Shown: positions 10,181-63,007, counted from the stretch's first letter. The stretch: 64,000 nucleotides of DNA from Candidatus Omnitrophota bacterium (GCA_018830005.1 JAHJTE010000001.1:709624-773623), one strand, 5' to 3'. Translations and numbers: made by a program. Notes: generated by a model not told the origin, from the letters alone.

Positions 10181-10237
10181 AGCAATGTTGGATTGATTCT
10201 GTTAGTTTTAGGGAGAACAATTGAAGGAGGTTTTAAT

Positions 10238-21057: not shown

Positions 21058-21066
21058 AGTTTAACT

Positions 21067-21510
21067 ATGAGCGCATTTAAAAAAGTAATGGCAAAACAAT
21101 TAGGGGAGCTTCTGATTGAACGTGGAGTTATCGGGGCTAAACATCTTGAGAAGGCGCTTGAAGTTCAGAAGGAAAAAGGCGGTCTTATCGGGGAAATCCT
21201 TGTAGAATTAGGTTTTGCAAAGGAAGAGGATATAGCTCATGCATTAACTGCCCAGTACGGGTTTCCATACTTACCTTTAAAAAATTATGATATAGATTTA
21301 GAAATTGTCCGGATTATCCCTAAGAATGTAGCTATCCAGTACTGTCTTATTCCCATAGATAAGATCGGCACCTCGCTAACAGTTGCTATGTCTAATCCAT
21401 TAAATGTTCAGGCGATCGAGGATATAGAACTACTTACCAAGTGCAAGGTTCAGACTTTTGTAAGCACCCCTTCAGATATTAGAGAGACAATAAAGAAATA
21501 TTATAAATAA
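21067..21510 (+). CDS. stand-alone MshEN/T2SSE_N domain protein, a putative c-di-GMP receptor
   Basis: Two tandem copies of the MshEN-type motif, KQLGELLIERGVIGAKHLEKALEVQ and LIGEILVELGFAKEEDIAHALTAQ. No ATPase domain. Confidence 0.75.
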   Translation: MSAFKKVMAKQLGELLIERGVIGAKHLEKALEVQKEKGGLIGEILVELGFAKEEDIAHALTAQYGFPYLPLKNYDIDLEIVRIIPKNVAIQYCLIPIDKIGTSLTVAMSNPLNVQAIEDIELLTKCKVQTFVSTPSDIRETIKKYYK

Positions 21511-21558
21511 AACCCAATATTCCTCATCTTTGGTATTTATTTTTAATTTTTAATAACT

Positions 21559-23274
21559 ATGGTTTCTTTAAAAGAACGCCTTACAGAGATCCTGATTAAG
21601 AATAAAATCATCACGCGGGAGAACCTGGATAAGGCGATTGCAGTTCAGTCTAAAGAAGGCGGAAGGCTGAGCGATATCCTTGTGCGTTTAGGATATGTAG
21701 ACCAGAAAGACTTAGTTATTGCCTTAAGTGAAGGTTTGGGCCTGCCCCCGATTGACCTAAACCGTTTCAAGATTGAATCGGAAGTAACTAAACTTATCCC
21801 CCAGGAGACCGCAAGGCACTACCAGATAATCCCTGTATCAAAAATGGGTAATACGCTTACCTTGGCTATGGCCGATCCTCTCAACGTCTTTGCTATTGAT
21901 GCAGTCAAGACCTTGACAGGTTTTGATATAAATCCGATTATCGCAAAGCCGGAAGATGTGATGAATGCAATTACTCAATATTACGGAGAGGACTCTTACC
22001 AGGCTATAGAAGATATAATTGATGAAATGGGTAAAGATAGCGAGCTGGAAGTTATTAAGGATGAAAAGATAGATTATGCAGACGTGCAGGAATTGGCTCG
22101 TCTTACTCAAGAAGCCCCTGTAATTAAGATTACCAATCTTTTCCTAAAGCAGGGAATTGAAGCCAGGGCCTCGGATATATTAATTGAGCCGTTTGAGAAA
22201 AGTGTTCGCGTTAGGCTACGTGTTGATGGCATGTTAAAAGAGATTGAATCCCCGCCTAGATCTTTACATGCTTCCGTAGTCTCTAGGATTAAGGTAATGT
22301 CTGGAATGGATATAGCCGAACATAGGCTTCCTCAGGATGGAAGATTTAAGATCAAGCTAGAAGGCAAGGATGTTGATTTTCGTGTTTCAGTTTTGCCTTC
22401 TAGCTTTGGAGAAAAGGTTGCTTTGCGTATCCTGGATAAAACTACGGCAAAATTGGATATTACCCAACTTGGATTTGACAAGCATGCCGTGGAGGTTCTA
22501 AAAAAAAGTGCCCTTAAGCCGCATGGTATGATTCTTACCTGCGGCCCTACAGGAAGCGGTAAGACAACCACGTTATATTCTTTGCTTAAATTTATCGATG
22601 CCCCAGATAAGAACATTATTACAGTCGAAGACCCTGTAGAATACCAACTTCGCGGCATTAATCAGGTCACTGTAAATGTAGATATTGGACTTACATTTGC
22701 CAGTTGCCTGCGTTCTATCTTGCGGCAGGATCCTGACATTATTATGGTAGGTGAAATTCGCGATTTTGAAACAGTCGATATTTCAATTAAGGCCGCGTTA
22801 ACAGGCCATCTTGTTTTGAGTACGTTACATACTACTACAGCTCCTGGTTCTGTGATTCGGCTTGGAGATATGGGCGTAGAACCATTTTTAATTACCTCTA
22901 GTGTTATTGCTGTTATGTCCCAGAGGCTACTACGCAAGCTTTGCGAACGCTGTAAAGAAGAGATAGTAGTTAAAGAAGAGGTCTCCAAGAAGGTAGGCAT
23001 AAAGACAGGGACAAAGGTCTTTGCTGCAACGGCCTGCAAGAATTGTCTTAATACTGGTTATGCTGGCCGTTTAGGAATAATAGAGATTTTAGAATTAACC
23101 CCCAAGGTTAAAGAGTTGATACTTGGTCGGGTGCCGGAGGATGTGATTAAGAAAGCTGCTCGCGAGGAAGGGATGAAGACACTTCAGGAGGCTGGTATAG
23201 AAAAAGTTATCGAGGGCCTCACTTCTATAGACGAAGTTGTGCGCCTTACAGCGCCTGATAAAGAAATGGCATAA
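21559..23274 (+). CDS. pilB: type IV pilus assembly ATPase PilB/GspE (copy 1)
   Basis: A GspE-N domain, Walker A GPTGSGKTT, Asp and His boxes and a C4 Zn motif CERC...CKNC. Confidence 0.9.
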   Translation: MVSLKERLTEILIKNKIITRENLDKAIAVQSKEGGRLSDILVRLGYVDQKDLVIALSEGLGLPPIDLNRFKIESEVTKLIPQETARHYQIIPVSKMGNTLTLAMADPLNVFAIDAVKTLTGFDINPIIAKPEDVMNAITQYYGEDSYQAIEDIIDEMGKDSELEVIKDEKIDYADVQELARLTQEAPVIKITNLFLKQGIEARASDILIEPFEKSVRVRLRVDGMLKEIESPPRSLHASVVSRIKVMSGMDIAEHRLPQDGRFKIKLEGKDVDFRVSVLPSSFGEKVALRILDKTTAKLDITQLGFDKHAVEVLKKSALKPHGMILTCGPTGSGKTTTLYSLLKFIDAPDKNIITVEDPVEYQLRGINQVTVNVDIGLTFASCLRSILRQDPDIIMVGEIRDFETVDISIKAALTGHLVLSTLHTTTAPGSVIRLGDMGVEPFLITSSVIAVMSQRLLRKLCERCKEEIVVKEEVSKKVGIKTGTKVFAATACKNCLNTGYAGRLGIIEILELTPKVKELILGRVPEDVIKKAAREEGMKTLQEAGIEKVIEGLTSIDEVVRLTAPDKEMA

Positions 23275-23280
23275 ATTAAA

Positions 23281-24981
23281 ATGGCAACTTTAAGCAATAA
23301 GATATTAGAGATTTTAGTTAAGACAAAGCGCATCTCCCTTAAGCAGAAGCAGCAGGTTTTGTCTTTAAAGAAGCAAAAGGATTCATCAATCAAAGATATC
23401 CTTATTAATGAGGGTTTTATTTCTAATAAGGAGTTGTTAGCAGTTCTTTCAGAAGAATTTAGATTACCGCCTTTAGATCTATCTAAATATAAAATTGATG
23501 CGGAGATAATCAAGATTATTCCCGAACGCCTGGCTCGCCAGCATCATCTTATCTGCGTTTCTCAGATTGGCTCTACGATTACTGTGGCAATGAGTGATCC
23601 TTTAAATATATTCGCGCTTGATGATTTGCGGATTTTGACAAAAAAGGAAATTGATCCTGTAATATCAACTGAAAGCGATATAAACAAAGCTATTGAAAAA
23701 TATTATTGCGGGGACGTGGTTGCTATTTCTTCTTTGCTTGATGAGGGAGATAAAACAGCAGAGGTATTAAGTGTTGATGGCGAACAATCAAATATATCAG
23801 CTGTTATCGAAGAGAGCCAAAAGGCCCCGATTGTAAAAGTCGTTGATTTGATTATTGCCGAGGCCCTTTATAAACGGGCTTCTGATATTCATGTTGAGCC
23901 GGCTGAAGAAGGTTTACGAGTGCGTTACCGCATAGATGGCAATCTGTATGACACTCTTACATTACCGAAAAGCAATCAAAATGCTATTTTAGCGCGACTT
24001 AAGATTATGAGCGGTTTAGACATAACCGAATCAAGGCTTCCGCAAGACGGACGCTTTAAGATTAGGTTGGAATCAAAGGAGATAGACTTTCGTGTTTCTG
24101 CACTGCCGACGACATTTGGTCAAAAGTTCGTTCTGAGGGCATTGGATAAATCAAGTCTTTCTATGGGGTTGGATAAGCTTGGTTTCTTTCCAGAGAGATT
24201 GGCGCTGTTTAAACAGGCGATAGCAAAGCCTTATGGAATGATTTTAGTTACAGGGCCAACAGGAAGCGGGAAATCTACAACCCTTTATTCTATATTGAAT
24301 CGATTGAATACGATGGAAAAAAACATAATTACTGTTGAAGACCCTGTTGAGTATCAGATTGAGGGCATCACCCAGATACATGTAAAACCTGAGATTGGCC
24401 TTACCTTTGCTGCTGGATTACGTTCCATACTGCGTCAAAGTCCGGATATCATTATGATTGGTGAGATTCGCGATTCCGAGACAGCAGATATAGCTGTGCG
24501 TGCTTCTCTAATTGGGCAGTTAGTTTTTTCTACCTTGCACACAAATGATGCTGCTGGCGCAATCACACGTTTAATTGATATGGGGGTTGAGCCATTTCTT
24601 GTTGCCTCTTCAATTATTATGACCTGTGCACAGAGGCTTTGTCGTAAAATATGTAATGCCTGCAAAGAGCCAGTCGAAATCCCGGACAGTATCCTTAAAA
24701 AATTAACTCTAAGGCCAACCAAGACAGATACCTTTTATGCAGGACGCGGCTGTAACCACTGCAACAATACTGGTTATTTTGGCAGATTGGCAGCTTTAGA
24801 AGTCTTGATGATTGACGATAATATATGCAGGATGATTTTAAAAAAATCTTCTAGTGATCAGATTAAGGAATATGCAATTAAAAATAATGGCATGCAGACA
24901 ATCTGGGATGATATGATGCGTAAGCTTAAAATGGGTGCTACTACTTACGAGGAAGTTTTACGCGTAGCGATTGATACATAA
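23281..24981 (+). CDS. pilB: type IV pilus assembly ATPase PilB/GspE (copy 2, tandem paralogue)
   Basis: Same architecture as copy 1. Walker A GPTGSGKST, C4 motif CRKICNAC...CNHC. Confidence 0.9.
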   Translation: MATLSNKILEILVKTKRISLKQKQQVLSLKKQKDSSIKDILINEGFISNKELLAVLSEEFRLPPLDLSKYKIDAEIIKIIPERLARQHHLICVSQIGSTITVAMSDPLNIFALDDLRILTKKEIDPVISTESDINKAIEKYYCGDVVAISSLLDEGDKTAEVLSVDGEQSNISAVIEESQKAPIVKVVDLIIAEALYKRASDIHVEPAEEGLRVRYRIDGNLYDTLTLPKSNQNAILARLKIMSGLDITESRLPQDGRFKIRLESKEIDFRVSALPTTFGQKFVLRALDKSSLSMGLDKLGFFPERLALFKQAIAKPYGMILVTGPTGSGKSTTLYSILNRLNTMEKNIITVEDPVEYQIEGITQIHVKPEIGLTFAAGLRSILRQSPDIIMIGEIRDSETADIAVRASLIGQLVFSTLHTNDAAGAITRLIDMGVEPFLVASSIIMTCAQRLCRKICNACKEPVEIPDSILKKLTLRPTKTDTFYAGRGCNHCNNTGYFGRLAALEVLMIDDNICRMILKKSSSDQIKEYAIKNNGMQTIWDDMMRKLKMGATTYEEVLRVAIDT

Positions 24982-50499: not shown

Positions 50500-52227
50500 T
50501 TATTTAGTAGGAGGCCTTTCTGGTATGAGGAAAACACACACCTTGTTTCTACCTGTCTCTTTGGCTTTATAAAGCGCCTTGTCAGCGAAAGAGATTAATT
50601 CTTTAGGGGTCTGGGCATCTGTCTCAGTTAAGGATGCGATTCCTATACTGATTGTTACCTTTAGAGGCTGGTTCCCTTTATAAGGGAAGTTAAATTCTTC
50701 AATAGATTTTCTTAGACGTTCAGCGTAGATACTGGCGCCTTTTGCAGTTGTATTAGGCAAAATACAGCAGAATTCTTCACCGCCGTAACGGGCCACGACA
50801 TCCACTCTGCGGCTGCTCTCCTGGATGATCCTAGCAACATTCTTTAAGATTACATTTCCTTCTTCATGCCCGTAAGTGTCGTTTACTTTTTTAAAGTGGT
50901 CAACATCCATTATCAAAAATGTAAGTTGAGTATTTTCCTCTTTTGCGTGTGCAAATTCAGAATCAAGTTTAAGTATTAGATAGCGATGTACAAAGAGTCC
51001 TGTGAGCCCATCAGTAATCGCCATAGTTTTTAAGATTGCTGCCTCAACCAATAAGCGCATATATTTGTATGTCTCCGTGCCCAGATACAAAAATGCGGCA
51101 ATAAATATCGGACCAAAGTAGTCAAAGGATAAGTTTTGATAGGAAAGCAGAAAGGAAACAAGCATAAGCCCTAAAAGCTCTAGCGCCAAAAGAAGGGAAC
51201 CTTTAAGGATTGAGAGTTTATAGGTGAATATTGCGGTGCAAATTGCAACTATTAGAATCAACAGGATTGAGAAAATCTCAGGCGTCTCTTTTAGAAAATT
51301 TCCTGATAAGTACATTAGGATTTCATTGGCATTGATTACTACCCCTGGCATCAGGCCCAGGGGGGTAGGGTAGACATCGTGAAAGATTTCAGCAGTCGTG
51401 CCGACGAGAATAATCTTTTTGTGGATACTTGCTTTACTAGCAGTTTTATTGATTATTTTATGAAAGGGGATGATTTCAAAGTCTTTATTTTTTGCCTGGT
51501 AATTAATCAATGCTGTGCCTTTTTCTGAAAGAGGAATGATTACTTGCTTTGTTGTTTTTGCCACATCTTTTAGATTGATAAGCATTCTGCGATTATTAAG
51601 TGAGACGTCGTTTTTAATATCGCTTTCGTGATAGCGCAAAAAGGTCTTTAGTCCGAAAGAGGTTTTTAGTATTCCCGGAAGGTCTTTTCTTGGAAACAGG
51701 AGGCGGCAATTACGCACGGTTAAATCTTTATCGCGTGTCTTGTTAACAAAGCCAAAGCCTAAGGCTGCTTTTTGCAAAGGCAGATAAGGTTCATTATAAC
51801 TTTTATCCGGGGCAATGTAACTTGCAAGAATTACATTGCCTGCATTTTTAATTGCCTCAGCCAGTGCCGAATCATCATCCTTATTATTGCTTTCTCCTGT
51901 AAATACCATATCCAGACTAATGATCTTTGGTCTGTATTCATTTAGGTTATCAATAAATTCACTCAAGAAACTTCGTGACCAGGGCCATTTTTTCTGCAAG
52001 ACCATGAATGATTCGTCATCAATAACAACAAGGCTGATCTCTTTTAATTCTTTGGGTTTAGGTTTTAACTGATAAGTAAGGCGATTAAACAAATCAGCAG
52101 TTTTTAACGAAAGGATATTTAAAAAAGTAATTTTATGGGAGGAAAAAGAATAAGCCAGGCTTATAATCATCGCCACACAGATTACCTTTATCAGATTCTT
52201 ATCCCAGGATATCTTTTTCTTTTTCAT
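50500..52227 (-). CDS. CHASE2 sensor-domain diguanylate cyclase (canonical GGEEF, RxxD I-site present)
   Basis: N-terminal periplasmic CHASE2-like region, three C-terminal TM helices, GGDEF domain with DVDHFKKVNDTYGHEEGN and RRVDVVARYGGEEF. Confidence 0.85.
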   Translation of the reverse strand: MKKKKISWDKNLIKVICVAMIISLAYSFSSHKITFLNILSLKTADLFNRLTYQLKPKPKELKEISLVVIDDESFMVLQKKWPWSRSFLSEFIDNLNEYRPKIISLDMVFTGESNNKDDDSALAEAIKNAGNVILASYIAPDKSYNEPYLPLQKAALGFGFVNKTRDKDLTVRNCRLLFPRKDLPGILKTSFGLKTFLRYHESDIKNDVSLNNRRMLINLKDVAKTTKQVIIPLSEKGTALINYQAKNKDFEIIPFHKIINKTASKASIHKKIILVGTTAEIFHDVYPTPLGLMPGVVINANEILMYLSGNFLKETPEIFSILLILIVAICTAIFTYKLSILKGSLLLALELLGLMLVSFLLSYQNLSFDYFGPIFIAAFLYLGTETYKYMRLLVEAAILKTMAITDGLTGLFVHRYLILKLDSEFAHAKEENTQLTFLIMDVDHFKKVNDTYGHEEGNVILKNVARIIQESSRRVDVVARYGGEEFCCILPNTTAKGASIYAERLRKSIEEFNFPYKGNQPLKVTISIGIASLTETDAQTPKELISFADKALYKAKETGRNKVCVFLIPERPPTK

Positions 52228-52616: not shown

Positions 52617-53282
52617 ATGAAAAGAAAAGGTTTTAGTTCATTAGAGTTAATAATTGGCTTAGCCCTTACGGCTATTATGGCTACTATGGGCATTGTTAAT
52701 TTCAGTAGCCAGGATGCGTTATTGCTTGATGCTGCAGCCCAAAAAGTTGTCTCTGACTTAAATTACGCCAGGATGTTGGCTATTGACATGGGAGAGCAAA
52801 GCGAATATACTTATTCTGGAGGCGAAGCAGGCGAGGAGGCAGGCAACTTTGTGGTTATGGATTTTAGTGATGAGGCTTCAACTCTTCCTAGTTCTTATCG
52901 CGCTGTTCCTGCGTTACAGCTGCCTGCAGAAACTGGAGATCCTGTTGGCACAAGAATTAGTGTGTTATATGAACCGGTAGTGAGAAATATTACAGAAAAA
53001 GTTGAACTTTTTTTTCCTAGTGAAGATGATTTTAAACAAGTCAAGATACAATCTGTAGACTTTGGCGATGACGGATCAGGCGGCGCTTATAACGCTGTTC
53101 GTTTTGAAGGACCTACAGGCAGACCAATGAACGGTACCTGGGTTATGGGGAATGATGAAAATGCTTATTTTTCAACTGATACAGGATTGGGAAGTTCAGG
53201 TGGCATTATTGTTGTAGAGTATAATGGCAGAACTAAGATAGTCAGGATTTCTCGTATCGGAAGGATTACTATTGAAAATTAA
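52617..53282 (+). CDS. prepilin-type pilin-like protein, KG|FSSLELIIGLALT
   Basis: ATG with a GAGG RBS. Class III signal peptide. 221 aa with a Gly-rich C-terminal domain. Confidence 0.7.
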   Translation: MKRKGFSSLELIIGLALTAIMATMGIVNFSSQDALLLDAAAQKVVSDLNYARMLAIDMGEQSEYTYSGGEAGEEAGNFVVMDFSDEASTLPSSYRAVPALQLPAETGDPVGTRISVLYEPVVRNITEKVELFFPSEDDFKQVKIQSVDFGDDGSGGAYNAVRFEGPTGRPMNGTWVMGNDENAYFSTDTGLGSSGGIIVVEYNGRTKIVRISRIGRITIEN

Positions 53283-53790
53283 TAATATTAGTAACAGATT
53301 GCATAAACTGTTAATTTTAAAAGCTCCATCAGGTCTATCACTGATGGAGCTTTTGGTTGTTATTGTCATTATCGCAGTATCCTTATTGCCTCTCTATGCC
53401 TTATTCAATCAAGCAATACTAGCCCATGTAACTGCTCAAGTTATGACTACTTCTTCTTATCTTGGCCAGTATGCTATGGAAAGTATGTTGTCCAAGGATT
53501 TTTTTGAGCTTCTTAACGAACTTGATAGTGATGTGCATTCTTATGGCAACGATACTGTCTTTGCTGGCCCTTTTTCTAAGTATAAATACACAATAGAGGT
53601 TGATGCTATTGATCCTGAATACGGTGGCGCTGGAGGGGATTTAGCTGATATAAGTGCGAGAGTTAGTTCAGCTGATGGCGTTGCAAGCGGCAGTTATCTG
53701 CGTATCTATGTAAGGATAACAAATGATATTCAGCCCGGTAAGCAATTAGAACTCTACAGTATAGTCACACCAGCAGGAGACGGGTATTGA
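53272..53790 (+). CDS. prepilin-like pseudopilin, ...APSG|LSLMELLVVIVIIAV
   Basis: The track start is a TTG overlapping the upstream gene, so the true start is uncertain. Methylation-type motif with L at +1. Confidence 0.55.
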   Translation: MKINNISNRLHKLLILKAPSGLSLMELLVVIVIIAVSLLPLYALFNQAILAHVTAQVMTTSSYLGQYAMESMLSKDFFELLNELDSDVHSYGNDTVFAGPFSKYKYTIEVDAIDPEYGGAGGDLADISARVSSADGVASGSYLRIYVRITNDIQPGKQLELYSIVTPAGDGY

Positions 53791-53791
53791 T

Positions 53792-54331
53792 ATGAAAACA
53801 AAAGGGTTTACTCTTATAGAAATGGTTATTAGCATTGCGGTTTTAGCTATTATTGCTGTAGTGCTTACCCCTATTGTATTACAATCAATAGATTTATTTT
53901 TGATGTCCAGAACTCAAGAGGTACTTGCTAATGAATCAAGATTTGCCATGAATTGGATGTCAGAAGAAATAAAAACAGAATGCGCAAGTTTCAATACTAT
54001 TGACGGTATGAGTTTGACATTTACAACCTGTGCAACGTGTGATCCTCCCAATACACCGATTTCCTATGATTGGGATAGTGCTAATAATAGATTGATTCGA
54101 ACAGTTGGCGGAGGAGACGACAACGACGATATTTTAGCTGAAAGAGTAAGTTTTGCAGAGTTTCGGGTTTTTGATACAGTTGATTTAGATATGTCGGCAG
54201 GACAGACTAACGTGAGTGATTTCAGTACGTTTGATGTAAGATTTGTGCAGATAAGATTAGCGATAACAGATGATACTGGAACAAAGGCCTATAGCCTTGT
54301 AACTCGGATTATGCCGCGTTATCTGCAATAG
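53792..54331 (+). CDS. prepilin-type minor pilin, KG|FTLIEMVISIAVLAII
   Basis: ATG start, AGGAGA RBS, canonical GFTLIEM motif. 179 aa. Confidence 0.7.
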   Translation: MKTKGFTLIEMVISIAVLAIIAVVLTPIVLQSIDLFLMSRTQEVLANESRFAMNWMSEEIKTECASFNTIDGMSLTFTTCATCDPPNTPISYDWDSANNRLIRTVGGGDDNDDILAERVSFAEFRVFDTVDLDMSAGQTNVSDFSTFDVRFVQIRLAITDDTGTKAYSLVTRIMPRYLQ

Positions 54332-54334
54332 CCA

Positions 54335-56917
54335 GTGTTGATGATGCTAAGTTTTAAATTTAACAGAAAATCCTTTGCCTTAATTCTGGCGCTGTGGATT
54401 CTGGTTGCCTTTAGCGTTATTGCCATGACAGCGATGTATGTGGTAAGCCGCAAACTTGATGAATATGTAAACCAGATAAATTCGCTTAAAGGTCAGTATT
54501 TAGCAGAATCAGCCAAGAATTACTTTTTAGAATATGTCACACCTTTTGATAATGATTTGATGGGCAACCCCCAGATAAACAAGGAATTAGGAGGAGAAAA
54601 CTTTCAATTTAGTATAAATTATGACACTGACCCTGCTCCTACAGCACGAACTGCAAGTATGACCCTTACCGGAAGCTCTCCTGGAGTTAACCGCTTTATA
54701 AGCTTGAATATAATTGAAGATGAAAATCAGAATGATGAAATAATTAAAAAAGTTAAGAAATACAATGCGGTTATTAAGAATCAGAACCCGATTACCTTAG
54801 AGGATGTGTGTATCACCAGAGGTTGTACTGAGTGGTATACTGCGGCTGATTGTGTTGACAACTGTCCTTCAACCAGTGGCGCTACTCCCGACGGTTGTTG
54901 TGAAGTATGTTATAGCTCGAGTAACTGCACTGATGCCTGTCCTTCAACCAGTGGTGGTAGTCCGAGTGGTTGTTGTGAGGGCTGTTATAGCTCAAGCAAC
55001 TGCACTGATGCCTGTCCTTCAACCAACTACTGTTGCGAAGGATGCTACAACTCAAGCAACTGCACTGACTCCTGCCCTTCAACTAGTTCCTGTTGCGAAG
55101 GATGCTACAACTCAAGCAACTGCACTGACTCCTGCCCTTCAACTAGTTCCTGTTGCGAAGGATGCTACAACTCAAGCAACTGCACTGATACCTGTCCTTC
55201 TACTAGTTCCTGTTGTGAAGGCTGTTATAGCTCAAGCAACTGCACTGACTCCTGCCCTTCAACTAGTTCCTGTTGCGAGGCATGTTATAGCTCAAGCAAC
55301 TGCACTGACTCCTGCCCTTCAACTAGTTCCTGTTGTGAAGGCTGTTATAGTTCTTGTTTTAGTGCTGTTACTAATAATTATTATAATGGGGATTGCAGCC
55401 AAGACACTGCTGCTAGTTGCTGTCTTTCTTCTGTGCCTTCAGGCTATGAATACTGTTGTGAGGCAGTTTCCTGTCAATGTCAGACAGCAGCATATCCGTG
55501 TAAAACTGTGTGTTGTCCAGAGTCAGACTATCCAACTTGGAGTACGACTTGTGATGCTAGTTATAGCTGCGATTCAAATTGGGAGCAGTCTTGCATTGAG
55601 ACGGGATGGTGTGCTTGCTCATTAGAAAGAGAGACTGGTTTTATTCTAGCAGGCGGGGAACCACAATGTCCGTGTTGTCTAGAATATGGGGATTGGACTT
55701 GTAAGACTATAAAGTTAGCATGTCCAGGCGGATGGAAGACCTCCTGCAGTAACTACGAATGTAGTAATTATGATTGTAGTGATTACGAATGTAGTAATTA
55801 TGAGTGTAGTAATTATGAATGTAGTAATTATGAGTGCAGAAACTACGACTGCAAAAACTATAAATGTAAGACAGAAGATTGCACAGCATGGCGTTCGCCA
55901 ACATTTCATAGCACTACCTACTTTGACGTATCAAGCGTCCAAGTAACTACAAACTATTCTCCCACTGCGAATCAGGCAATATGGGGAGAGTCCACTGACG
56001 CTAAGAACCTCTATGTAAATGGTAGCCTAGACCTTGATAATATCAGTGATATTACAAAATATGGTGTCTGGGGTGATGCCTATGCAAAGGATGCAATAAC
56101 TGATACTATTGGTGCAATACATGGTAGTGAGTTTGAGAATTGTAACTCAGTCGCAAATCCTGATGAATGTAGCTGGTCAGTTACAAAACCCGCAATAGAT
56201 ACAGCTTATTATGATAGGTTATTTGTTAAGGCGCAGGCTATGACTGCAGGCGATTTGCCAGATATAACCACTACCTCTTCAGGCTCCTCTGATCGACAAC
56301 TAAAAGGAAAGAATATTTTTGTAAATGGCAATGTTACTATTAGTACTGATAGCGATAATCCCTTGGAAGGCCCAGGGAATATTATTGCTATTGGAACAAT
56401 TACAATTAGTAATAGTGCTCATATTGAAGAGAATATTGGCCTTATCAGTAAAACCGCAGTTAATATTGGTCAGTCAGCGCGTGTTGGTAGGGCCAAGACC
56501 GGGGATACAAGTGGTGAATTTATTCAAGGAAAAGGCGTATTTATCTATGTTGCTAGAGATGCAGGCACAACTGTAGTAGATTTAGGATATTATTCCAAGA
56601 CAAAGGCCTATATCTTAGTAGTGCCGCATACATCTGGTACCACAGAAAATACAATAAAGGTTAGTGACTACCATGATGATGCCTCTCCTGATGATAATCG
56701 TTATGCCCGGCTTCAGGGTTTAATCTATACTGAAGGTCTTCATGATGAGACTGGTGAGGTTTACGGCTATATTTATACAGACAATCTAACCAATGACCAG
56801 ATAGTAATGTTGCGGCTGCTTGAGGATGATGTTTCTGGAACTCCTGTTGAATCACAGCGGCCCATAAAAATCAGAGGCCTTTATAACATTGGCATAGCCA
56901 ACCTTACTTATAAATAG
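54335..56917 (+). CDS. 860-aa PilX-N-like pilus protein with a hyper-Cys-rich tandem-repeat stalk and a beta-helix-like C-terminal domain
   Basis: GTG start. N-terminus FALILALWILVAFSVIAMTAMYVVSRK (PilX_N-like). About 8 copies of CCEGCYNSSNCTDSCPSTSS and about 8 copies of CSNYE. The C-terminus (NIFVNGNVTISTDSD...GNIIAIGTITISNS) resembles the 500-aa PilX-like protein. Confidence 0.7.
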   Translation: MLMMLSFKFNRKSFALILALWILVAFSVIAMTAMYVVSRKLDEYVNQINSLKGQYLAESAKNYFLEYVTPFDNDLMGNPQINKELGGENFQFSINYDTDPAPTARTASMTLTGSSPGVNRFISLNIIEDENQNDEIIKKVKKYNAVIKNQNPITLEDVCITRGCTEWYTAADCVDNCPSTSGATPDGCCEVCYSSSNCTDACPSTSGGSPSGCCEGCYSSSNCTDACPSTNYCCEGCYNSSNCTDSCPSTSSCCEGCYNSSNCTDSCPSTSSCCEGCYNSSNCTDTCPSTSSCCEGCYSSSNCTDSCPSTSSCCEACYSSSNCTDSCPSTSSCCEGCYSSCFSAVTNNYYNGDCSQDTAASCCLSSVPSGYEYCCEAVSCQCQTAAYPCKTVCCPESDYPTWSTTCDASYSCDSNWEQSCIETGWCACSLERETGFILAGGEPQCPCCLEYGDWTCKTIKLACPGGWKTSCSNYECSNYDCSDYECSNYECSNYECSNYECRNYDCKNYKCKTEDCTAWRSPTFHSTTYFDVSSVQVTTNYSPTANQAIWGESTDAKNLYVNGSLDLDNISDITKYGVWGDAYAKDAITDTIGAIHGSEFENCNSVANPDECSWSVTKPAIDTAYYDRLFVKAQAMTAGDLPDITTTSSGSSDRQLKGKNIFVNGNVTISTDSDNPLEGPGNIIAIGTITISNSAHIEENIGLISKTAVNIGQSARVGRAKTGDTSGEFIQGKGVFIYVARDAGTTVVDLGYYSKTKAYILVVPHTSGTTENTIKVSDYHDDASPDDNRYARLQGLIYTEGLHDETGEVYGYIYTDNLTNDQIVMLRLLEDDVSGTPVESQRPIKIRGLYNIGIANLTYK
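54858..55355 (+). repeat. in-frame 60-bp tandem repeat array (about 8 units; the two 5' units are 75 bp)
   Basis: Units 55021-55080, 55081-55140 and 55141-55200 are near-identical (ctgttgcgaaggatgctacaactcaagcaactgcactgactcctgcccttcaactagttc). The period coincides with the 60-column lines of the sequence listing. Confidence 0.9.
55745..55865 (+). repeat. in-frame 15-bp tandem repeat (tgtagtaattatgaa, about 8 units) encoding (CSNYE)n
   Basis: Read directly. Protein: CSNYECSNYDCSDYECSNYECSNYECSNYECRNYDCKNYKC. Confidence 0.85.
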
Positions 56918-56953
56918 CCTTCCTAGATAGACCCCAAATTTCAAACCAACTAC

Positions 56954-56995
56954 TAATCTTTCAATGGCTGCGCTGTTGGTTTTTGGATTTATTTG
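56954..56995 (+). terminator. possible terminator after the 860-aa gene
   Basis: AACCAAC...GTTGGTT stem with a long loop, then TTTTGG. Confidence 0.3.
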
Positions 56996-57175
56996 TTTCT
57001 GTATTTGTAACTTTAATATAGCAATATGTTGTATAAGATAAAAAAATATTGCTTAGCCTTGAAATATAACAGGAGGTATGTTATATTTTATGTTGACAAT
57101 TTAGAAATGAAGCGAAAAGTCCCGAATCTAGTAGTTTAGGTGTCGGGATCCCTTCTAAAATGCTAAATATTTTAG

Positions 57176-57343
57176 AAGGGGGCAAACCATTTGAAAGAAT
57201 GGGGCGGGCCGAGTGCCTGGTCCTAATAAGGACCGCAAAGCTAAAGAGCCTAAGTCCTGAATTTTCAGGATATGGTAGTCAGTTGCCGAAGTCAAAACAG
57301 CAATTTACTACCCTATTCTTTTAAGTGGAATAGGGTTTTTTTA
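57176..57343 (+). ncRNA. c-di-GMP-I (GEMM) riboswitch-like leader with terminator (copy 4, extended variant)
   Basis: GGCAAACCATTTGAAAGAATGGGGCGG[GCC...GGTCCTAATAAGGACC]GCAAAGC. GGTAGT at 57264 can pair with ACTACC of the terminator 5' arm. Terminator CCCTATTC...GAATAGGG plus T7. Confidence 0.8.
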
Positions 57344-57362
57344 TGTGAGGATAAGACTAAAG

Positions 57363-57632
57363 ATGGACAAGAAAGGTTTTACACTAGTTGAGATTATGAT
57401 TGTAGTCGGGGTTCTTGCGCTGCTAATGGCTATTTCATTGCCGATATTATCAAGAATGCGCCAAAATGCAAATGAGGCAAAAACCCAGGCTGAACTTAAT
57501 TCACTGTATAAGGCAGTTAACATGTATTATGCCTATAATGGCAGATACCCTAGCGAGTTGAGCGAATTAAGTGATTATATTACAATAGCTAACATTGATA
57601 ATAAATACGAGTTGAATTCGGATCTACCTTAA
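57363..57632 (+). CDS. short type IV pilin (89 aa), MDKKG|FTLVEIMIVVGVLALLMAISLP
   Basis: ATG at 57363 with an AGGA RBS. The track start at 57345 is a GTG inside the terminator T-tract. Shares the paralogous pilin motif with the pilin at 26579. Confidence 0.8.
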   Translation: MDKKGFTLVEIMIVVGVLALLMAISLPILSRMRQNANEAKTQAELNSLYKAVNMYYAYNGRYPSELSELSDYITIANIDNKYELNSDLP

Positions 57633-57652: not shown

Positions 57653-58264
57653 ATGATTAAGAATTGTTTAGTCTCCATATTTAGTTTGATCTTGCTGCTA
57701 GGCTTATCCTTAAGTTCTGCAGAGGCAGCTTCTAATAATACCTGGTTGATTAAATCAAAGGCCACTGGTTCAGAACAGGTATTTGCTGTGTGGATGGATG
57801 GTCGGTTGAGTTCTGGCACACCTGTCTCAGAGGACGGGATTATTAGTAGTGTAACCTTTAGTGGCAGTCAATATCTTTCTGCCAAGGAATGGGTTACAAA
57901 TGAGCAGACTGGTGCAGTCCGCACTTATTGGAGCAATAAACCTATTGTCTATGGAATGGAATCAGAAGGAGGTACATACAGGATTGTCTTATCGGCAAAG
58001 AATTATGTTGGTAGCACTGGTTGGAGCCTGCCAAAGGGATATAAGAATTTTAATGTCGTTGTTAAAGTAGCTAATAAGAAGGTTGGTACAATTCTCCTAG
58101 AGGCAAGTGATACAGAGGTAAAGACAGGGTATCTGGTCCTAAATGATATCGAATCAGGCGTTCATCAGGTCAAACTAATCTGGAATAATGATAGCTACAA
58201 GCCAGCAAAGAAGTGGGATGCAAATATAGAAATCCAAAGTGTAGCATTTGAGAAGATTGAATAA
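57653..58264 (+). CDS. hypothetical secreted beta-rich protein
   Basis: Signal peptide LLLGLSLSSAEA|AS. 203 aa, no recognisable motif. Co-transcribed 20 nt after the short pilin. Confidence 0.45.
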   Translation: MIKNCLVSIFSLILLLGLSLSSAEAASNNTWLIKSKATGSEQVFAVWMDGRLSSGTPVSEDGIISSVTFSGSQYLSAKEWVTNEQTGAVRTYWSNKPIVYGMESEGGTYRIVLSAKNYVGSTGWSLPKGYKNFNVVVKVANKKVGTILLEASDTEVKTGYLVLNDIESGVHQVKLIWNNDSYKPAKKWDANIEIQSVAFEKIE

Positions 58265-58606: not shown

Positions 58607-60316
58607 ATGAACAGGAATCTTAGAAAGGGATTTAGTAGTATCGAATTTATCGGTGTGCTTACGGTAATTGTTGTAATTTTGGCATTTTCTATCCCTAAAA
58701 TTGTATCTACAAAAATAGCAGCAAACGAAACTGCCGCAATCAGCGATCTCTACAAATTGGGATCAGCGTTTGAAGCGTATCGCTCAATATACAGTACTTA
58801 CCCAAGAGATTTTTCCGACCTTAACAACCTTGCTCCGGATTTAATCGGGCAGGAGTTTGTCTCAGTCTCTGGGGCAGAATACGCTAAAGGCGGATATGCC
58901 TTTAAGATTGATTCTGTTGATACTGATATTGTGCCTACATATGCCTTTAGAATCTATGCTGAGCCAAAGGTTTCTTCGTTCAGGGTTACTGCTGGTCTTG
59001 TTAGCGGTATTCCTACTGGTAGACGCGTATTTAAGTATGGTGTGAATAAGGCAGACGCTAGTGTTGGTTATTATGCTAAGAATCCTGGAACGAGTCAGCC
59101 TGAGGCAATCTCCGACTGGATTCCTCTTACAGGAGTTGAAGGACGGGGTTTTATGGGCACATCAACAACTACACCACCTCCACCACCTCCACCACCAACT
59201 TCACCTCCTACTACAACAACTACAACAACTACTACTACAACGTCCGATACTGCACTTACATTTACAACGCAGACTATTACAACTACTATAGCCACTATAA
59301 CCACTACAACAACTACAACTAGCACAACGACTACTACACTAGGGCTAATCGGAACTACTACCACTGTACAGACAACAACAACCACAGATGTAACAGAAAC
59401 ACTTCCTGGTCTTCTTAGTTGTCCTTATGTTCATGTTTGGGATGGAAGTCAGTTTATAAAAGACAATGATATTATTCCGGGTGGAAATACTCATGAATAT
59501 ACTGATTACTATAAATTAACCAAACAGGTTAGTGCGGATAAAAATGGTGACTTATTATTTAAGATTATTGAACCTTTGGATGAAAAATCTTATCTTGATA
59601 AGGCACATCTAATAGAGGTTAGACATCCTAAGTTTGTTAATATTGCTCCTTCGCCAGAGGGTGAGATGTTCACTTATAAACAAAGGGCCTTAAGGCGACC
59701 AAGAAAGGCCATTGATACAAATGGTGAAGATATTCTAAGTCTTGTTTCTAGCAAGGGCAAAGGTGATTATCATGGTCTTCCTGGAGATTTTGTTACATTT
59801 GATTTTGGTAAGATTAAAAAAGCACCTAATGGCATGCGACTTATCTTAAGCTCTGACTTAGAATATGCCTATGCTGCTAAAAGCACGAAGTCGCTGCATA
59901 TTGAGGTGTTTCTTGAGGATAGCTATTGGCAGGAGATCTCTATAGTTCATCCTCATGAGGCCTGGGATATCTGGGCAATAGATCTAGCTTCATTTAAAGA
60001 CAAGATTGCTGGTGAGCTTAGGGTAAAGATCAACTGGAAAAATGAACACAAGCTAGATTTTGCACTTTTAGATATGTCAGCCCAGGTTCCGATTAAGATT
60101 AGAGACCTAGCCTTGGTTGAGGCAAAACACAATAAGAGATTCTTCAGTAATGTAATGTCTCTACTTAAGAAGTCTGATAATAGATATGCCAAGATGGTTA
60201 AAGGCGATGAGATATCTCTTAGATTTAGAGGTTCTAGCAAGGGCTTAGAGCCTAAAGAGGTGTTAAGTTATATCTTTGTCAGCGAGGGCTTTTATAAGCC
60301 GCTCATTAAGAAATGA
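58607..60316 (+). CDS. pilin-domain fusion protein: prepilin N-terminus + pilin globular head + Pro/Thr-rich linker + roughly 330-aa C-terminal domain of unknown function
   Basis: KG|FSSIEFIGVLTVIVVILAFSIP. A paralogous pilin motif (AISDLYKLGSAFEAYRSIYSTYP), then a P8 and poly-T linker, then a novel domain starting CPYVHVWDGSQ. Confidence 0.7.
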   Translation: MNRNLRKGFSSIEFIGVLTVIVVILAFSIPKIVSTKIAANETAAISDLYKLGSAFEAYRSIYSTYPRDFSDLNNLAPDLIGQEFVSVSGAEYAKGGYAFKIDSVDTDIVPTYAFRIYAEPKVSSFRVTAGLVSGIPTGRRVFKYGVNKADASVGYYAKNPGTSQPEAISDWIPLTGVEGRGFMGTSTTTPPPPPPPPTSPPTTTTTTTTTTTSDTALTFTTQTITTTIATITTTTTTTSTTTTTLGLIGTTTTVQTTTTTDVTETLPGLLSCPYVHVWDGSQFIKDNDIIPGGNTHEYTDYYKLTKQVSADKNGDLLFKIIEPLDEKSYLDKAHLIEVRHPKFVNIAPSPEGEMFTYKQRALRRPRKAIDTNGEDILSLVSSKGKGDYHGLPGDFVTFDFGKIKKAPNGMRLILSSDLEYAYAAKSTKSLHIEVFLEDSYWQEISIVHPHEAWDIWAIDLASFKDKIAGELRVKINWKNEHKLDFALLDMSAQVPIKIRDLALVEAKHNKRFFSNVMSLLKKSDNRYAKMVKGDEISLRFRGSSKGLEPKEVLSYIFVSEGFYKPLIKK

Positions 60317-60336: not shown

Positions 60337-60831
60337 ATGTTTAGAAACAATAGTCCCGTTAGAGAGCCTAACAAAGCAAAGAGGACTCTGACGGGACTTA
60401 CTTTATTTGAGGCCCTATTAGTTACGGCGGTAATCGGGATTGTTCTTGTCTTGAGTATTCCACACCTATCCAGGATGAAAATCCAGGCCAATGAGACTGA
60501 TGCAATAGCCTCTTTGGGCAAGATAGCCGCAGCCATGGAGGTTTACCGTATCCTCTATAAAACATATCCAGACAATTTAAATAAGCTCTCAATAGTCAAT
60601 CCTACTCTTTCAGCAGGACCATTGTTGAGTAGTGGCTCAAAAAGTGGCTATAATTACCGGATTGAAATTGAAGATGAGAGTTTTGATCCGAATAGCTTTA
60701 CTGTGATTGCAGAACCAAAACAGCCGCTTAAAACTGGTGAACATAGGTTTAAAGTTGACCAGAATGGAATCATATATTCTACAGACTCTCAGACCTCAAT
60801 AGTCTGGATGCCTCTGGGCGGTGCAATCTAA
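60337..60831 (+). CDS. prepilin-type pilin paralogue (long leader, ...LTG|LTLFEALLVTAVIGIVLVL)
   Basis: Shares the IASLGKIAAAMEVYRILYKTYP motif with the other paralogues. 164 aa. Confidence 0.65.
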   Translation: MFRNNSPVREPNKAKRTLTGLTLFEALLVTAVIGIVLVLSIPHLSRMKIQANETDAIASLGKIAAAMEVYRILYKTYPDNLNKLSIVNPTLSAGPLLSSGSKSGYNYRIEIEDESFDPNSFTVIAEPKQPLKTGEHRFKVDQNGIIYSTDSQTSIVWMPLGGAI

Positions 60832-60932: not shown

Positions 60933-62273
60933 CTATTTTATGAAATCAATAAATAGCCGCAATTCTCTAGGCAGGGTTCTAATGTTAATTCCAGATATTC
61001 TCTTGGCGAGATAACCTGGCCTTAGATAAAAGGAGTAATATGCGTTTCTAGTAATCGTTGTCAGTTCTTTTAGCGAGTAATTTCCACCCGGGCAGCTTTG
61101 GGGGAAATCAAGCGTTTTTCTATTTCCTTTTATACTTTCATAGAATTTAGTCCCAGGATAGGGCGTTGCAATATGGAAGGAGGCATAGGTGGGATTTAGT
61201 TGCTTAGCCAGCTCTATAGTTTTTTTGAAATCCTCTTTTATTTCTTCTGGAAATCCGAACATAAAGAAACAAGCTGTCTGGATCCCTGCTGATTTTGTTA
61301 ATTCAATACCATTTCTTATTTGTTCTAAGGTTAATTGTTTTTCTATTCTTTCTAGAATCCTTTGCGAGCCTGATTCAATTCCAAAATGAATGAGGACACA
61401 GCCTGCTTCTTTCATCATCTTTAGCATCTCAAGGCTTAGTGCATCTGGCCTAGTCTGGCAAGTCCAGCGGAAACCATGTTTGTTTTTAATCAGATAATTG
61501 CATAGTTCTTTCACCAGCTTCTTGTTGAAGGTAAAGGTCTCATCATAAAAATAGGCGTTTTTTATGCCGAACTTTGAGATTGCAGTTTCCACTTCAGCAA
61601 TAAGCTTCGTGCTGGATTTTAGCCGGCAGGTATTGCCGTACATTACCTGTAGGCAATAGGTACATTTATACGGACATCCTCTTGCACCCTCAAAGATCAT
61701 AAATCTATCACCCAGGATTTCGTAATTGTATTTGTATTGTTTTACAAGATGATAAGCAGGAAGGGGTAGAGAGTTTAAATCAACCAATTCTGTTTTTGGA
61801 TTAGAGATTATCTTGCCGCCTTGTTTATAAACTAGGCCAGGGACATATTTTTTTTCTTTCCTAGCCAGATCTAGCACCATAGACTCTGGTTCGCCCTTGA
61901 TTATGCCTGCGGCCCCACTTTTTTCTAGAACCTCCTCAGGAAAGAGGCAGCAGTGAGCGCCATAAAGATACAGATTCTCTTTTGGAAAGGCAGCGATAAA
62001 TTCAAGGAATGTCTCAAAATCAAGGTTAGGGCATTGCCATTTATAGAGAGGACTTGAGGTGATAATTATTTTATCATATTTTCTTGAAAGAGTAATTATA
62101 TCAGCTTTTGCTTTGCTATCAGCGTTTGCATCAAAGATCTCAACATCAATACCTGCCTTTTCCAATATAGCAGCACAATACATTAAATCAAGAGGAGGGA
62201 AGGTGCGGTTAAATCTGTGCCCCTTTTTACTTACCTTGGTTTTCCAGCTGGGGTTAACTAAAAGAATCTTCAT
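60933..62273 (-). CDS. B12-binding-domain radical SAM protein
   Basis: N-terminal cobalamin-binding-like Rossmann region, then a CPYKCTYC radical SAM motif. Confidence 0.8.
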   Translation of the reverse strand: MKILLVNPSWKTKVSKKGHRFNRTFPPLDLMYCAAILEKAGIDVEIFDANADSKAKADIITLSRKYDKIIITSSPLYKWQCPNLDFETFLEFIAAFPKENLYLYGAHCCLFPEEVLEKSGAAGIIKGEPESMVLDLARKEKKYVPGLVYKQGGKIISNPKTELVDLNSLPLPAYHLVKQYKYNYEILGDRFMIFEGARGCPYKCTYCLQVMYGNTCRLKSSTKLIAEVETAISKFGIKNAYFYDETFTFNKKLVKELCNYLIKNKHGFRWTCQTRPDALSLEMLKMMKEAGCVLIHFGIESGSQRILERIEKQLTLEQIRNGIELTKSAGIQTACFFMFGFPEEIKEDFKKTIELAKQLNPTYASFHIATPYPGTKFYESIKGNRKTLDFPQSCPGGNYSLKELTTITRNAYYSFYLRPGYLAKRISGINIRTLPRELRLFIDFIK

Positions 62274-63007
62274 TAATGCACCCAGAATCTGCTTTTAAGG
62301 AAGAGGGTAAAAAGATGTCTATATCTGTATATGGCCTCGTCTATAATATTAAATTTACTTTTTCTAGTGTCATCGCAATCAACAGAGATTTCAGTAATCT
62401 TACCGCCACTTTTGAAAATTCTGTAGATAGTTTCCACTACATAAGAAGTTCCTACATCCCGGCTTAGAAAATCCAGATATTGAAGCAAGGTCTTTCTTCT
62501 ATAGGCCTTGGCTGAGGGTGAATAGTCATGGAAGGGAAGTCCCATTAATAAATGCGCAATCCCTATATATATAATGCTTCCCCAGCGTCTTATCTTTGAT
62601 CTGCGTTGCGTCCCCATTACCTTAGAGCCTATGACTACCTCAAAGTCAGCTAAAAGATTGCAGGCCTTCTGAATAAAGCTCATATCAATAGTAAGATCCA
62701 TATCCAAGGATACAATTTTATCAAAGCAGGCCTTGCCAACTGCCTTACGAAAGGCCAACCCTACGCCCCTGCGACGACTAAGAATAACCTTAACATTAGA
62801 ATTTTTGCTAGCAAGCTCATTAGCTAAAAGAGCACTTTTATCAGTACAGCCGTTACAAGAAAGCATGACTTCGTAGTTGGGTTTAAGTTTCCCAAGATGA
62901 TTTAGAATCTTCGTAGTATTTTTAACAATCAAGTCTTCTTCATTATAGACCGGAATAATAACTGATATACCTTCTTTATCCATCTTTGCTCCTTTTTCTG
63001 GATGCAT
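62273..63007 (-). CDS. family-2 glycosyltransferase (polyprenyl-phosphate sugar synthase-like)
   Basis: ISVIIPVYNEEDLI N-terminus and the DxD-containing region VSLDMDL. Confidence 0.8.
   Translation of the reverse strand: MHPEKGAKMDKEGISVIIPVYNEEDLIVKNTTKILNHLGKLKPNYEVMLSCNGCTDKSALLANELASKNSNVKVILSRRRGVGLAFRKAVGKACFDKIVSLDMDLTIDMSFIQKACNLLADFEVVIGSKVMGTQRRSKIRRWGSIIYIGIAHLLMGLPFHDYSPSAKAYRRKTLLQYLDFLSRDVGTSYVVETIYRIFKSGGKITEISVDCDDTRKSKFNIIDEAIYRYRHLFTLFLKSRFWVH

Follow-up and report, generated by a model that had tools for sequence, protein, structure and literature searches.

The subunit at the tip of a type IV pilus decides what the pilus touches. A stretch of 64,000 nucleotides from a Candidatus Omnitrophota bacterium (GCA_018830005.1 JAHJTE010000001.1:709624-773623), hereafter called the window, raises the question of what such a subunit does with an extreme amount of cysteine: an open reading frame (ORF) at 54335..56917 on the plus strand encodes an 860-residue pilin-like protein with a hyper-Cys segment in its middle. 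The Omnitrophota are uncultured, mostly ultra-small and thought to live attached to cells or to prey on them, and type IV pili are the leading candidate for their attachment organelle (PMC10066038). In the explanation preferred here, which is judged rather probable, the protein is the apical GspK/PilX/ComZ-class subunit of a four-protein type IV pilus priming complex and carries a disulfide-braced, hypervariable apical Cys module. The base architecture of such a subunit is already known; the literature searched contains no description of a tandem-repeat module of 358 residues with 20% Cys inside a tip pilin. The nearest precedent is found in some PilY1 clades of myxobacteria, which are moderately enriched in Cys, with a median of up to 41 in much longer proteins (PMC13190605).

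Cysteine anatomy of the 860-residue protein

The ORF, which an earlier note made from the sequence alone had delimited, is confirmed; it starts with GTG, and its coordinates include the stop codon. The GenBank version is the 858-residue hypothetical protein KJ593_04065 (P0001), which begins at an ATG two codons downstream of the GTG. Instead of the approximately 85 Cys estimated in that note, the protein contains 75, of which 73 lie within residues 159-516 (54809..55882, plus strand as all parts of the gene). This segment of 358 residues consists of Cys to 20.4%, compared to a mean of 1.06% in the 39 other ORFs of the window, and in the alignment described below it stands out as an insert not found in the ~500-residue members of the family.

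The insert has a tripartite layout. Its first part (54862..55350), resolved by Tandem Repeats Finder and by dissection of the units, comprises eight CC-E-[GAV]-C-Y units starting at residues 188, 213, 233, 253, 273, 293, 313 and 333. The unit consensus CC-x2-C-Y-x4-C-x3-C-P-x4 contains 5 Cys per 20 residues, arranged as two Cx3Cx5 halves plus one additional Cys; eight repeats of about 20-25 residues had been expected and are indeed present, whereas the 6-7 Cys ascribed to each of them are not. At the DNA level the tandem arrays have periods of 75 bp (2.2 copies) and 60 bp (6.3 copies, 90% match) in this part and of 15 bp (5.7 copies) further downstream, all of them multiples of three. The adjacent 60-bp units at 55031..55150 (residues 233-252 and 253-272) are identical in DNA. 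Since this is the case in a short-read metagenome-assembled genome (MAG), the repeat copy number is uncertain and may be under- or over-called, which leaves the frame unaffected; the 60-bp array is probably prone to slippage.

The unique Cys-rich segment that had been noticed behind the repeats is found at residues ~342-470 (55358..55744); it is non-repetitive and the least conserved part of the protein, with 25% identity to both orthologues described below. Residues 471-516 (55745..55882), corresponding to the 15-bp array, harbor eight C-x-x-Y-x pentapeptides (residues 471-510) and a degenerate ninth one, CKTED, which closes the array (CKTEDC). The number of eight pentapeptides agrees with the earlier reading, whereas the exact sequence CSNYE is realized in only four of them, the others being CSNYD, CSDYE, CRNYD and CKNYK. 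In composition, the insert is set apart from the flanking domains by its 4.7% of Ile, Leu, Val, Met and Phe (compared to 23-27%); it contains 34% Ser/Thr/Asn and 8.9% Tyr+Trp, bears a net charge of -34 and is devoid of His and Met.

Pfam searches with the whole protein (E ≤ 1) and with three pieces of the insert (E ≤ 10), as well as NCBIfam searches, revealed no family for the insert, and profile searches of the PDB sequences (A1, A2 and A4) gave nothing relevant to it, with A4 even at E ≤ 10. With no match in Pfam, NCBIfam or the PDB sequences, the Cys density is as exceptional as previously supposed, and a known family with an assigned function, to which the earlier note had allowed that the repeats might belong, was not encountered in these databases. 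The 49-residue CSNYE tract in particular does not match the Pentapeptide model (PF00805) at E ≤ 10.

Conservation of the reading frame

The 860-residue reading frame is genuine and selected in this frame, because two diverged Omnitrophota orthologues keep its architecture, the differences between its repeat units are mostly synonymous and its Cys residues are conserved. The order of parts is the same in P0002 (822 residues, 51% identity) and in P0003 (824 residues, 41% identity), the latter from a separate Omnitrophota MAG. Cys units are 17-26 residues long in the orthologues (mostly 17-20) and 20 residues long in the window protein, and their copy number and sequence vary between the orthologues; in P0003, two of the five Cys per unit are lost and the array is retained. 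The pentapeptide-type arrays of the orthologues consist of 7-11 C-x-x-[YF]-x units, which in P0003 read CQxFN and thus, compared to the A(D/N)LXX repeats of PF00805, lack the small and the D/N positions.

Pairwise codon comparison of the units yields 66 synonymous versus 33 non-synonymous differences for the 60-bp repeats and 49 versus 37 for the 15-bp repeats. Across the three insert-bearing proteins, 37 of 73 Cys positions of the insert are invariant compared to 23 of 285 non-Cys positions (Fisher p = 4e-15), so that Cys is six-fold more conserved. The insert is at the same time the fastest-evolving region, with 25-38% identity versus 50-72% in its flanks: the identities to P0002 and P0003 amount to 72 and 54% in the N-domain, 63 and 50% in the C-domain, 38 and 35% in the 20-residue repeats and 25% each in the unique segment.

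That the ORF is an artefact, whether of a wrongly chosen frame or of repeats collapsed in assembly, or else a pseudogene, is therefore hardly credible. Tandem repeats in a short-read MAG are indeed error-prone in copy number, two units are identical in DNA, and another frame across the Cys repeats holds an ORF of 273 residues (54804..55625), which is an out-of-frame reading of the same repeats. However, the 860-residue frame connects without a break two domains, each of which has many homologues, the same architecture was obtained from two independent assemblies, and neither the repeat periods, all multiples of three, nor the synonymous majority among the unit differences would be explained in this way. 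The frame error that the earlier note had named as its own weak point is thus contradicted by the two orthologues and the synonymous excess.

The cysteine block as a clade-specific insertion

Searched exhaustively by profile, 1.84 billion representative proteins contained 126 matches at E ≤ 1e-3. The true relatives among them (P0004-P0024 and others) are ~410-620 residues long and match profile positions 1-150 and ~500-840 only. In the alignment of 20 sequences (A2), residues ~159-516 of the window protein are located opposite gaps in 17 of the 19 others, and the insert-less relatives contain at this site a short linker, often with Cys (CYNCGGGYC, CWDCNGNCGCC). About 17 relatives that possess both flanking domains and such a linker are 470-620 residues long. 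Matches restricted to the repeats (P0019, P0023, P0030-P0092) were rejected as low-complexity look-alikes, for the most part translations of eukaryote-type microsatellites or unrelated Cys repeats. Since the relatives match both flanks only and possess a short linker in its place, the Cys block is a clade-specific expansion at a permissive junction of an otherwise ordinary ~500-residue family, a point missed in the earlier note.

The clade is tiny. Full-length carriers of the insert in the searched collections are only three, namely the window protein and its two orthologues. When additional insert-bearing candidates were sought, a word-indexed profile search added only the fragment P0010 and a genome scan found only the known P0003 locus; a first metagenome scan contained no insert-bearing orthologue, and a second one gave insert-less relatives only. 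P0010 is a 279-residue fragment on a 1-kb contig, whose N-domain, 48% identical to that of the window protein, precedes Cys repeats of another kind (WGTCKV or WGTTCIR, six times, and then CCAE...). Unrelated Cys-rich repeats have thus been acquired at the domain junction more than once, and the connection between pilin and solenoid is a hot spot for the grafting of lineage-specific modules.

Pilin class, predicted fold and topology

The gene begins 3 nt past the stop codon of the third of three pseudopilin genes. Pseudopilin genes are also located directly upstream of the orthologues, in L001 (the P0003 locus) and in L002, and in L005 the same minor-pilin operon has an insert-less relative as its fourth gene. 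The 860-residue protein is encoded by the fourth, GspK/PilX-class gene of this conserved four-gene operon.

Residues 1-158 (54335..54808) comprise a class III-type signal, a long α1-helix and a pilin-like β-sheet domain. The signal consists of a short basic leader with a small residue at position -1, followed by the hydrophobic N-terminal helix (...FNRKS, then FALILALWILVAFSVIAM); cleavage would take place between ...NRKS and FALILALW. Throughout the family, position -1 is Ser, Ala or Gly in 19 of 19 members and position +1 is Phe in 17 of 19, while position +5 is Leu or Ile in 19 of 19. Glu+5, which is present in the upstream pilin genes (LELIIG, LMELLV, LIEMVI), is consequently replaced by Leu in the window protein and is found in none of the 19 family members. 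The GspK class invariably lacks Glu+5, and its members provide the extreme C-terminal strand themselves wherever there is no PilY1, with large middle regions that loop out as in CpaL (PMC12918778). In the window, no scanned ORF contains a PilY1 domain.

In the AlphaFold2 (AF2) model calculated with alignment A2, the N-domain adopts a pilin-type structure (helix 11-68, strands 81-167) with a predicted local distance difference test score (pLDDT) of 70-89. The C-domain (residues 510-860) is β-rich with pLDDT ~90, as the earlier note had anticipated. For the repeat region, whose structure prediction the earlier note had suggested, no confident structure was obtained, the pLDDT being 24-42 for residues 177-508 in the full model and 31 on average for the insert modelled alone. 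The only feature of the latter model is a periodic pair of short strands per 20-residue unit (pLDDT 40-53).

Foldseek against the PDB gave no significant match, with ComZ of Thermus thermophilus ranked first. The N-domain is predicted to possess a GspK-like pilin fold and the C-domain to be a triangular β-solenoid of the ice-binding (DUF3494) type. ComZ itself has GspK as fold neighbour of its pilin domain and the ice-binding protein FfIBP as neighbour of its solenoid (PMC6561018). In the window protein the ice-binding-protein/ComZ-type solenoid extends over residues 517-842 (55883..56860) and includes the conserved Cys pair C603...C612, which brackets a solenoid loop in about 12 family members. 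It is followed in residues 843-860 (56861..56914) by the near-invariant motif P-x4-G-L-Y (Pro, Gly and Leu in 19 of 20 sequences each, Tyr in 18 of 20) and by the last predicted β-strand (853-859, assigned by DSSP), so that the domain order in the model is pilin, insert, solenoid and final conserved strand, which is compatible with the topology of the solenoid-bearing tip pilins. A kinship of the C-terminal domain with the 500-residue protein of the first pilus island (32359..33861), which had been proposed earlier, is not borne out: the best BLASTP E-value is 0.61, and hhalign aligns the N-terminal helix only (E 0.028).

The extreme C-terminal strand leads the chain back from the cargo domain to the pilin sheet in ComZ, cyanobacterial PilX, GspK and CpaL (PMC6561018, PMC12918778, bioRxiv 10.64898/2026.02.12.705559). 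By analogy, the extreme C-terminal strand of the 860-residue protein would return to the sheet of the pilin domain as a self-supplied strand. If the last strand is back at the pilin sheet as in ComZ, the solenoid is tethered at its C-terminal end and the Cys block, instead of lying beneath the solenoid as a spacer, forms one side of a loop-out that runs beside or beyond it. The rigid stalk suggested in the earlier note is hence doubtful, both from this strand return in the four known proteins and from the near-invariant motif with its predicted strand here.

Because of its operon position, the missing Glu+5 and its GspK- and ComZ-like predicted fold, the 860-residue protein belongs to the PilX/GspK class of type IV pilus components and probably sits at the tip, in agreement with what had been proposed from the sequence. 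Its placement with the ComZ/PilX-solenoid tip pilins follows from predicted fold, operon position and the features of both termini, not from sequence similarity, and extends this tip architecture to the Omnitrophota.

Comparison with known tip subunits and Cys-rich proteins

ComZ (PDB code 6QVI) combines a GspK-like pilin domain with a large triangular ice-binding-type β-solenoid, the same fold neighbours as described above (PMC6561018). It is likewise encoded among minor pilin genes and has been proposed to be located at the pilus tip. In contrast, it has no detectable sequence similarity to the 860-residue protein, and its two domains are connected by two short linkers without a Cys-rich module; the word disulfide is absent from the main text of the corresponding paper (PMC6561018). 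Furthermore, ComZ binds DNA, for which the insert with its net charge of -34 appears unsuited.

All cyanobacterial PilX homologues are reported to share one architecture, in which an ice-binding-type solenoid is placed between the penultimate and the last pilin strand; PilY1 is missing and the solenoid is proposed to replace it as a tip plug (bioRxiv 10.64898/2026.02.12.705559). In these organisms alternative minor-pilin sets serve one machine, and two sets are present in the window as well. The cyanobacterial proteins belong to another phylum, however, and the likeness is one of architecture; some of them contain extra undefined domains, with no hyper-Cys repeats described.

GspK/XcpX and CpaL resemble the window protein in the absence of Glu+5, in being encoded by the fourth gene after H/I/J-like pseudopilins and in a conserved extreme C-terminus, and CpaL additionally in having a large middle region that loops out, as that of the window protein would too (PMC12918778). 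Contrary to the solenoid, the cargo of GspK is a small α-helical domain inserted at another position of the sheet (PMC6561018). These subunits also work in type II secretion or Tad systems, whereas the machinery encoded in the window is of type IVa (PilM, PilO, secretin).

The Cys-enriched PilY1 clades of the Myxococcota are tip-located too, and the lineage-specific rise of Cys has been read as disulfide stabilisation of extended extracellular domains (PMC13190605). They belong to a different family (vWFA, β-propeller) without tandem Cys repeats, and the medians of 17-41 Cys per protein are reached in the longest PilY1 variants of that dataset, compared to 73 Cys in 358 residues here (PMC13190605). 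The 860-residue protein has no PilY1 Pfam match, and its C-domain is a predicted solenoid instead of the propeller of PilY1/PilC adhesins.

Outside of pili, a Cys density like that of the grafted module is found in antifreeze proteins, in proteins associated with keratin and in metallothioneins. The Tenebrio molitor antifreeze protein, the keratin-associated proteins and the metallothioneins are all very rich in Cys and are held together by Cys cross-links or metal and not by a hydrophobic core. Short tandem Cys units are typical of the Tenebrio protein and the keratin-associated proteins; the latter are eukaryotic and intracellular, and metallothioneins are cytosolic and free of aromatic residues. 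The likeness of the insert to all three is one of composition only. For metallothioneins, to which the earlier note had compared the protein, nothing fits except for the Cys fraction: the segment of 358 residues lies within an exported, extracytoplasmic pilin, contains the Tyr and Trp mentioned above and matches no metallothionein hidden Markov model (HMM) or other Pfam entry at E ≤ 10.

Nature and role of the insert

With 20% Cys, less than 5% aliphatic residues and a strong negative charge, the insert cannot form a hydrophobic core; if it is folded, Cys cross-links must therefore hold it together. Most likely these are disulfides, the simplest reading because the domain is located outside the cytoplasm, combines CC doublets with aromatic residues and has relatives with Cys pairs. 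CC doublets together with aromatic residues are a common trait of disulfide-rich extracellular modules, but not of metallothioneins. The Cys pair of the solenoid loop and the closely spaced Cys pairs of the PilX_N protein in the first pilus island (32359..33861) give a hint from sequence that the lineage makes periplasmic disulfides. A paired loss of Cys3 and Cys5 in P0003 was considered as evidence for a C3-C5 disulfide and discarded as not clean; one unit keeps C3 without C5.

In the preferred explanation, the protein would be inserted into the inner membrane and probably cleaved between ...KS and FALIL, upon which its N-terminal helix and the three minor pilins encoded upstream would jointly nucleate the filament. 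The ice-binding-protein-like β-solenoid would be the cargo and cap the pilus tip as in ComZ of Thermus and cyanobacterial PilX, with the extreme C-terminal strand going back to the pilin sheet. In a small clade, the linker between pilin and solenoid would have grown to ~300-360 residues by tandem duplication of units of ~17-26 residues (20 residues here) and of 5 residues. Cross-linked by its Cys, most likely as periplasmic disulfides, the insert would be a compact or rod-like, protease-resistant acidic module that is displayed next to the solenoid at the apex of the pilus, in an adhesive or structural role. Its sequence and copy number change fast, which would suit a surface part in contact with partner cells, prey or particles.

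Several observations weigh against this explanation. Neither the Pfam models (E ≤ 1, including PilX_N PF14341 and T2SSK) nor those of NCBIfam (GspK/PilX) match the 860-residue protein, so that the PilX-N-type N-terminus of the earlier note does not hold in terms of Pfam, and PilX_N matches only 2 of the 20 family members, weakly (E ≥ 1.8e-4). ComZ (6QVI) is not recovered from the PDB sequences by the A1 and A2 profiles, even at E ≤ 10, and since sequence profiles miss it, the relationship to ComZ rests on the predicted fold. The conservation statistics stem from three full-length insert carriers and thus from a shallow tree. The attributes compact, rod-like and disulfide-braced are drawn from composition, and the AF2 confidence on the insert is very low. 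With odd totals of 75 Cys here and 59 in P0003, at least one Cys must remain without a partner in its own chain. Finally, the Omnitrophota are mostly presumed anaerobes; if the insert is nevertheless disulfide-braced, it implies extensive oxidative folding, which would be unexpected for such organisms.

The odd Cys total would be less of a difficulty for a thiolate-based metal- or mineral-binding module, in which Cys, kept reduced by anoxic, reducing water, and Asp/Glu coordinate Fe, Zn, Ni, Cu or sulfide minerals at the pilus tip and either anchor the cell to particles or scavenge metal. The Cys content of 20%, the CC, CxxC and Cx3C spacings and the net charge of -34 are consistent with it, and the C-x3-C-P end of the unit recalls the ferredoxin cluster motif. 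Such a module seems unlikely, though, since no metallothionein, Fer4 or other metal-binding HMM matches even at E ≤ 10 and the 8.9% Tyr+Trp and lack of His are unlike classical metallothioneins. P0003 loses two of five Cys per unit and yet retains the array, which fits fixed tetrahedral sites poorly, and pilins cross the membrane unfolded via Sec, so that preassembled Fe-S clusters are not to be expected. In favour of the metal-binding module, the phylum is for the most part anaerobic and includes predicted metal reducers (PMC10066038); were it true, it would represent a new mode of pilus adhesion. More speculative, and to be regarded as distinctly unlikely, is a sulfur-chemistry device at the pilus tip, either a chemical adhesin that bonds to the host or prey envelope or to sulfide or oxide minerals by thiol/disulfide exchange or metal-thiolate formation, or a core-less, Cys-laddered extension of the solenoid. 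If true, either would amount to a so far undescribed principle of type IV pilus attachment, and the Cys-laddered core-less solenoid would in addition be a fold class not yet seen in bacteria.

The very low AF2 confidence throughout the insert would also agree with a neutral or tolerated low-complexity expansion, that is, a flexible, disordered spacer that replication slippage has generated at a permissive linker. With 90% identity and two identical 60-bp units the repeats are young at the DNA level, the orthologues differ in copy number and unit sequence, and most family members do without the insert. What renders this quite improbable is the six-fold higher conservation of the Cys positions (p = 4e-15), the excess of synonymous differences between units and the preservation of the tripartite layout at 41% overall identity; moreover, a non-repetitive Cys segment of 130 residues is not producible by slippage. 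That same segment, being non-periodic and placed between the two types of repeats, is difficult to reconcile with a reading in which the ~20-residue repeats and blocks of four 5-residue repeats are extra rungs lengthening the C-terminal solenoid, with Cys ladders or cross-rung disulfides in place of a hydrophobic core as in the Tenebrio antifreeze protein. The unit length of ~17-26 residues (mostly 17-20) is near the number of residues per turn of triangular solenoids, each unit consists of two Cx3Cx5 halves, the AF2 model of the insert alone shows its strictly periodic strand pairs, one per unit, and the Cys/Thr/Ser/Asn-rich composition is like that of the Tenebrio protein. However, the confidence of that model (pLDDT 40-53) is too low to serve as evidence and the insert profile finds no PDB sequence even at E ≤ 10, which makes these rungs very improbable. 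By its striking Cys density and its setting, the insert raises a testable question on the sulfur chemistry at the pilus tip, and the 860-residue protein would offer a compact, repeat-built and core-less scaffold for structural study.

Genes of the operon and its surroundings

The first gene of the operon (52617..53282, plus strand as the following genes unless stated otherwise) encodes a GspH/FimU-like protein of 221 residues with the class III signal MKRKGFSSLELIIG. Its matches to GspH and N_methyl are weak and that to XpsH/GspH of NCBIfam has an E-value of 4e-4, all of them below the curated cut-offs; a homologue is found at the same position in L005. The second gene (53272..53790, 172 residues) occupies the GspI/PilV position (Pfam N_methyl, E 6.6e-5) and has homologues with the same C-terminal motif, ...IVTPAG.GY, directly upstream of the related fourth genes in L001 and L005. 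In the GspJ/PilW position, the third gene (53792..54331) encodes a protein of 179 residues (MKTKGFTLIEMV; Pfam N_methyl, E 3.4e-7) with homologues at the directly upstream position in L001, L002 and L005 too. Directly downstream of the 860-residue gene, a small T2SSG-type pilin of 95 residues is encoded at 57345..57632 (Pfam N_methyl, E 9.8e-8; T2SSG, E 3.6e-4), beyond which the second pilin cluster continues with further pilin-like genes.

The type IVa machinery of the window includes two PilB-type ATPases (21559 and 23281), PilC (25002) and a pilin (26570), as well as PilM (34364), PilO (35890) and a secretin (36858). A first minor-pilin set, with genes at 30903 and 31434 and the 500-residue PilX_N/DUF4900 protein at 32359..33861, belongs to this first pilus island, which is separated from the second pilin cluster by housekeeping genes. 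Two separate minor-pilin sets (30903..33861 and 52617..57632), each with its own K-type subunit, are thus found beside one set of machinery genes. This suggests one machine with alternative pilus tips, as is known for Myxococcus (PMC13190605) and cyanobacteria (bioRxiv 10.64898/2026.02.12.705559).

With respect to the control of piliation, a stand-alone MshEN-domain ORF of 147 residues (21067..21510) precedes the two tandem PilB-type ATPases, which contain MshEN domains themselves (region 19612..24981). A GAF-GGDEF protein is encoded upstream of the PilB genes (19612), and a CHASE2-GGDEF protein at 50500..52227 on the minus strand just before the second pilin cluster. Judged from its domains, this layout points to a control of piliation by cyclic di-GMP.

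Within the second pilin cluster, a protein of 203 residues with a signal peptide (57653..58264) is encoded between the small pilin and a modular pilin; its match to a CBM60-like domain is weak (E 0.005, below cut-off), and it possibly binds carbohydrates as a secreted or pilus-associated protein. The modular pilin (58607..60316, 569 residues) is composed of a class III signal and a pilin head of ~180 residues, a Thr/Pro linker of ~90 residues (TTTPPPPPPPPTSPPTTTT...) and a C-terminal domain of ~300 residues without Pfam match. A 551-residue membrane protein of L001 is not homologous to it, and the idea of a conserved downstream membrane glycosyltransferase was rejected on this ground. At 60337..60831, a pilin of 164 residues is encoded whose ComP_DUS-type domain exceeds the curated Pfam cut-off (E 2.7e-6); the receptor pilin for DNA uptake in Neisseria is of this family.

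The opposite strand encodes, immediately downstream of this cluster, a radical SAM enzyme of the B12-binding kind and a family-2 glycosyltransferase (60933..63007, minus strand). No link of this pair to the Cys-rich protein was found, and it is not conserved beside the orthologue in L001. A thioether- or lanthionine-type modification of the Cys by the radical SAM enzyme (60933..62273, minus strand) was considered and is unlikely, as the gene is not conserved by the L001 orthologue and pilins are exported unfolded.

Two genes of the L001 locus are further to be mentioned. At 5879..6964 (plus strand) it encodes a pilin-like protein of 361 residues, whose head resembles that of the modular pilin at 58607 of the window and whose C-terminal half is Cys-rich between TTTPPP linkers (CICGCPTTSCPSGY...CSCVCTRTCS...). 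Cys-rich cargo is thus found repeatedly on pilins of this lineage. L001 also encodes, at 7817..10693 (plus strand) and thus a few kb downstream of its own pilin cluster, a secreted Peptidase_C25 (gingipain-type) protein of 958 residues with a Flg_new_2 domain.

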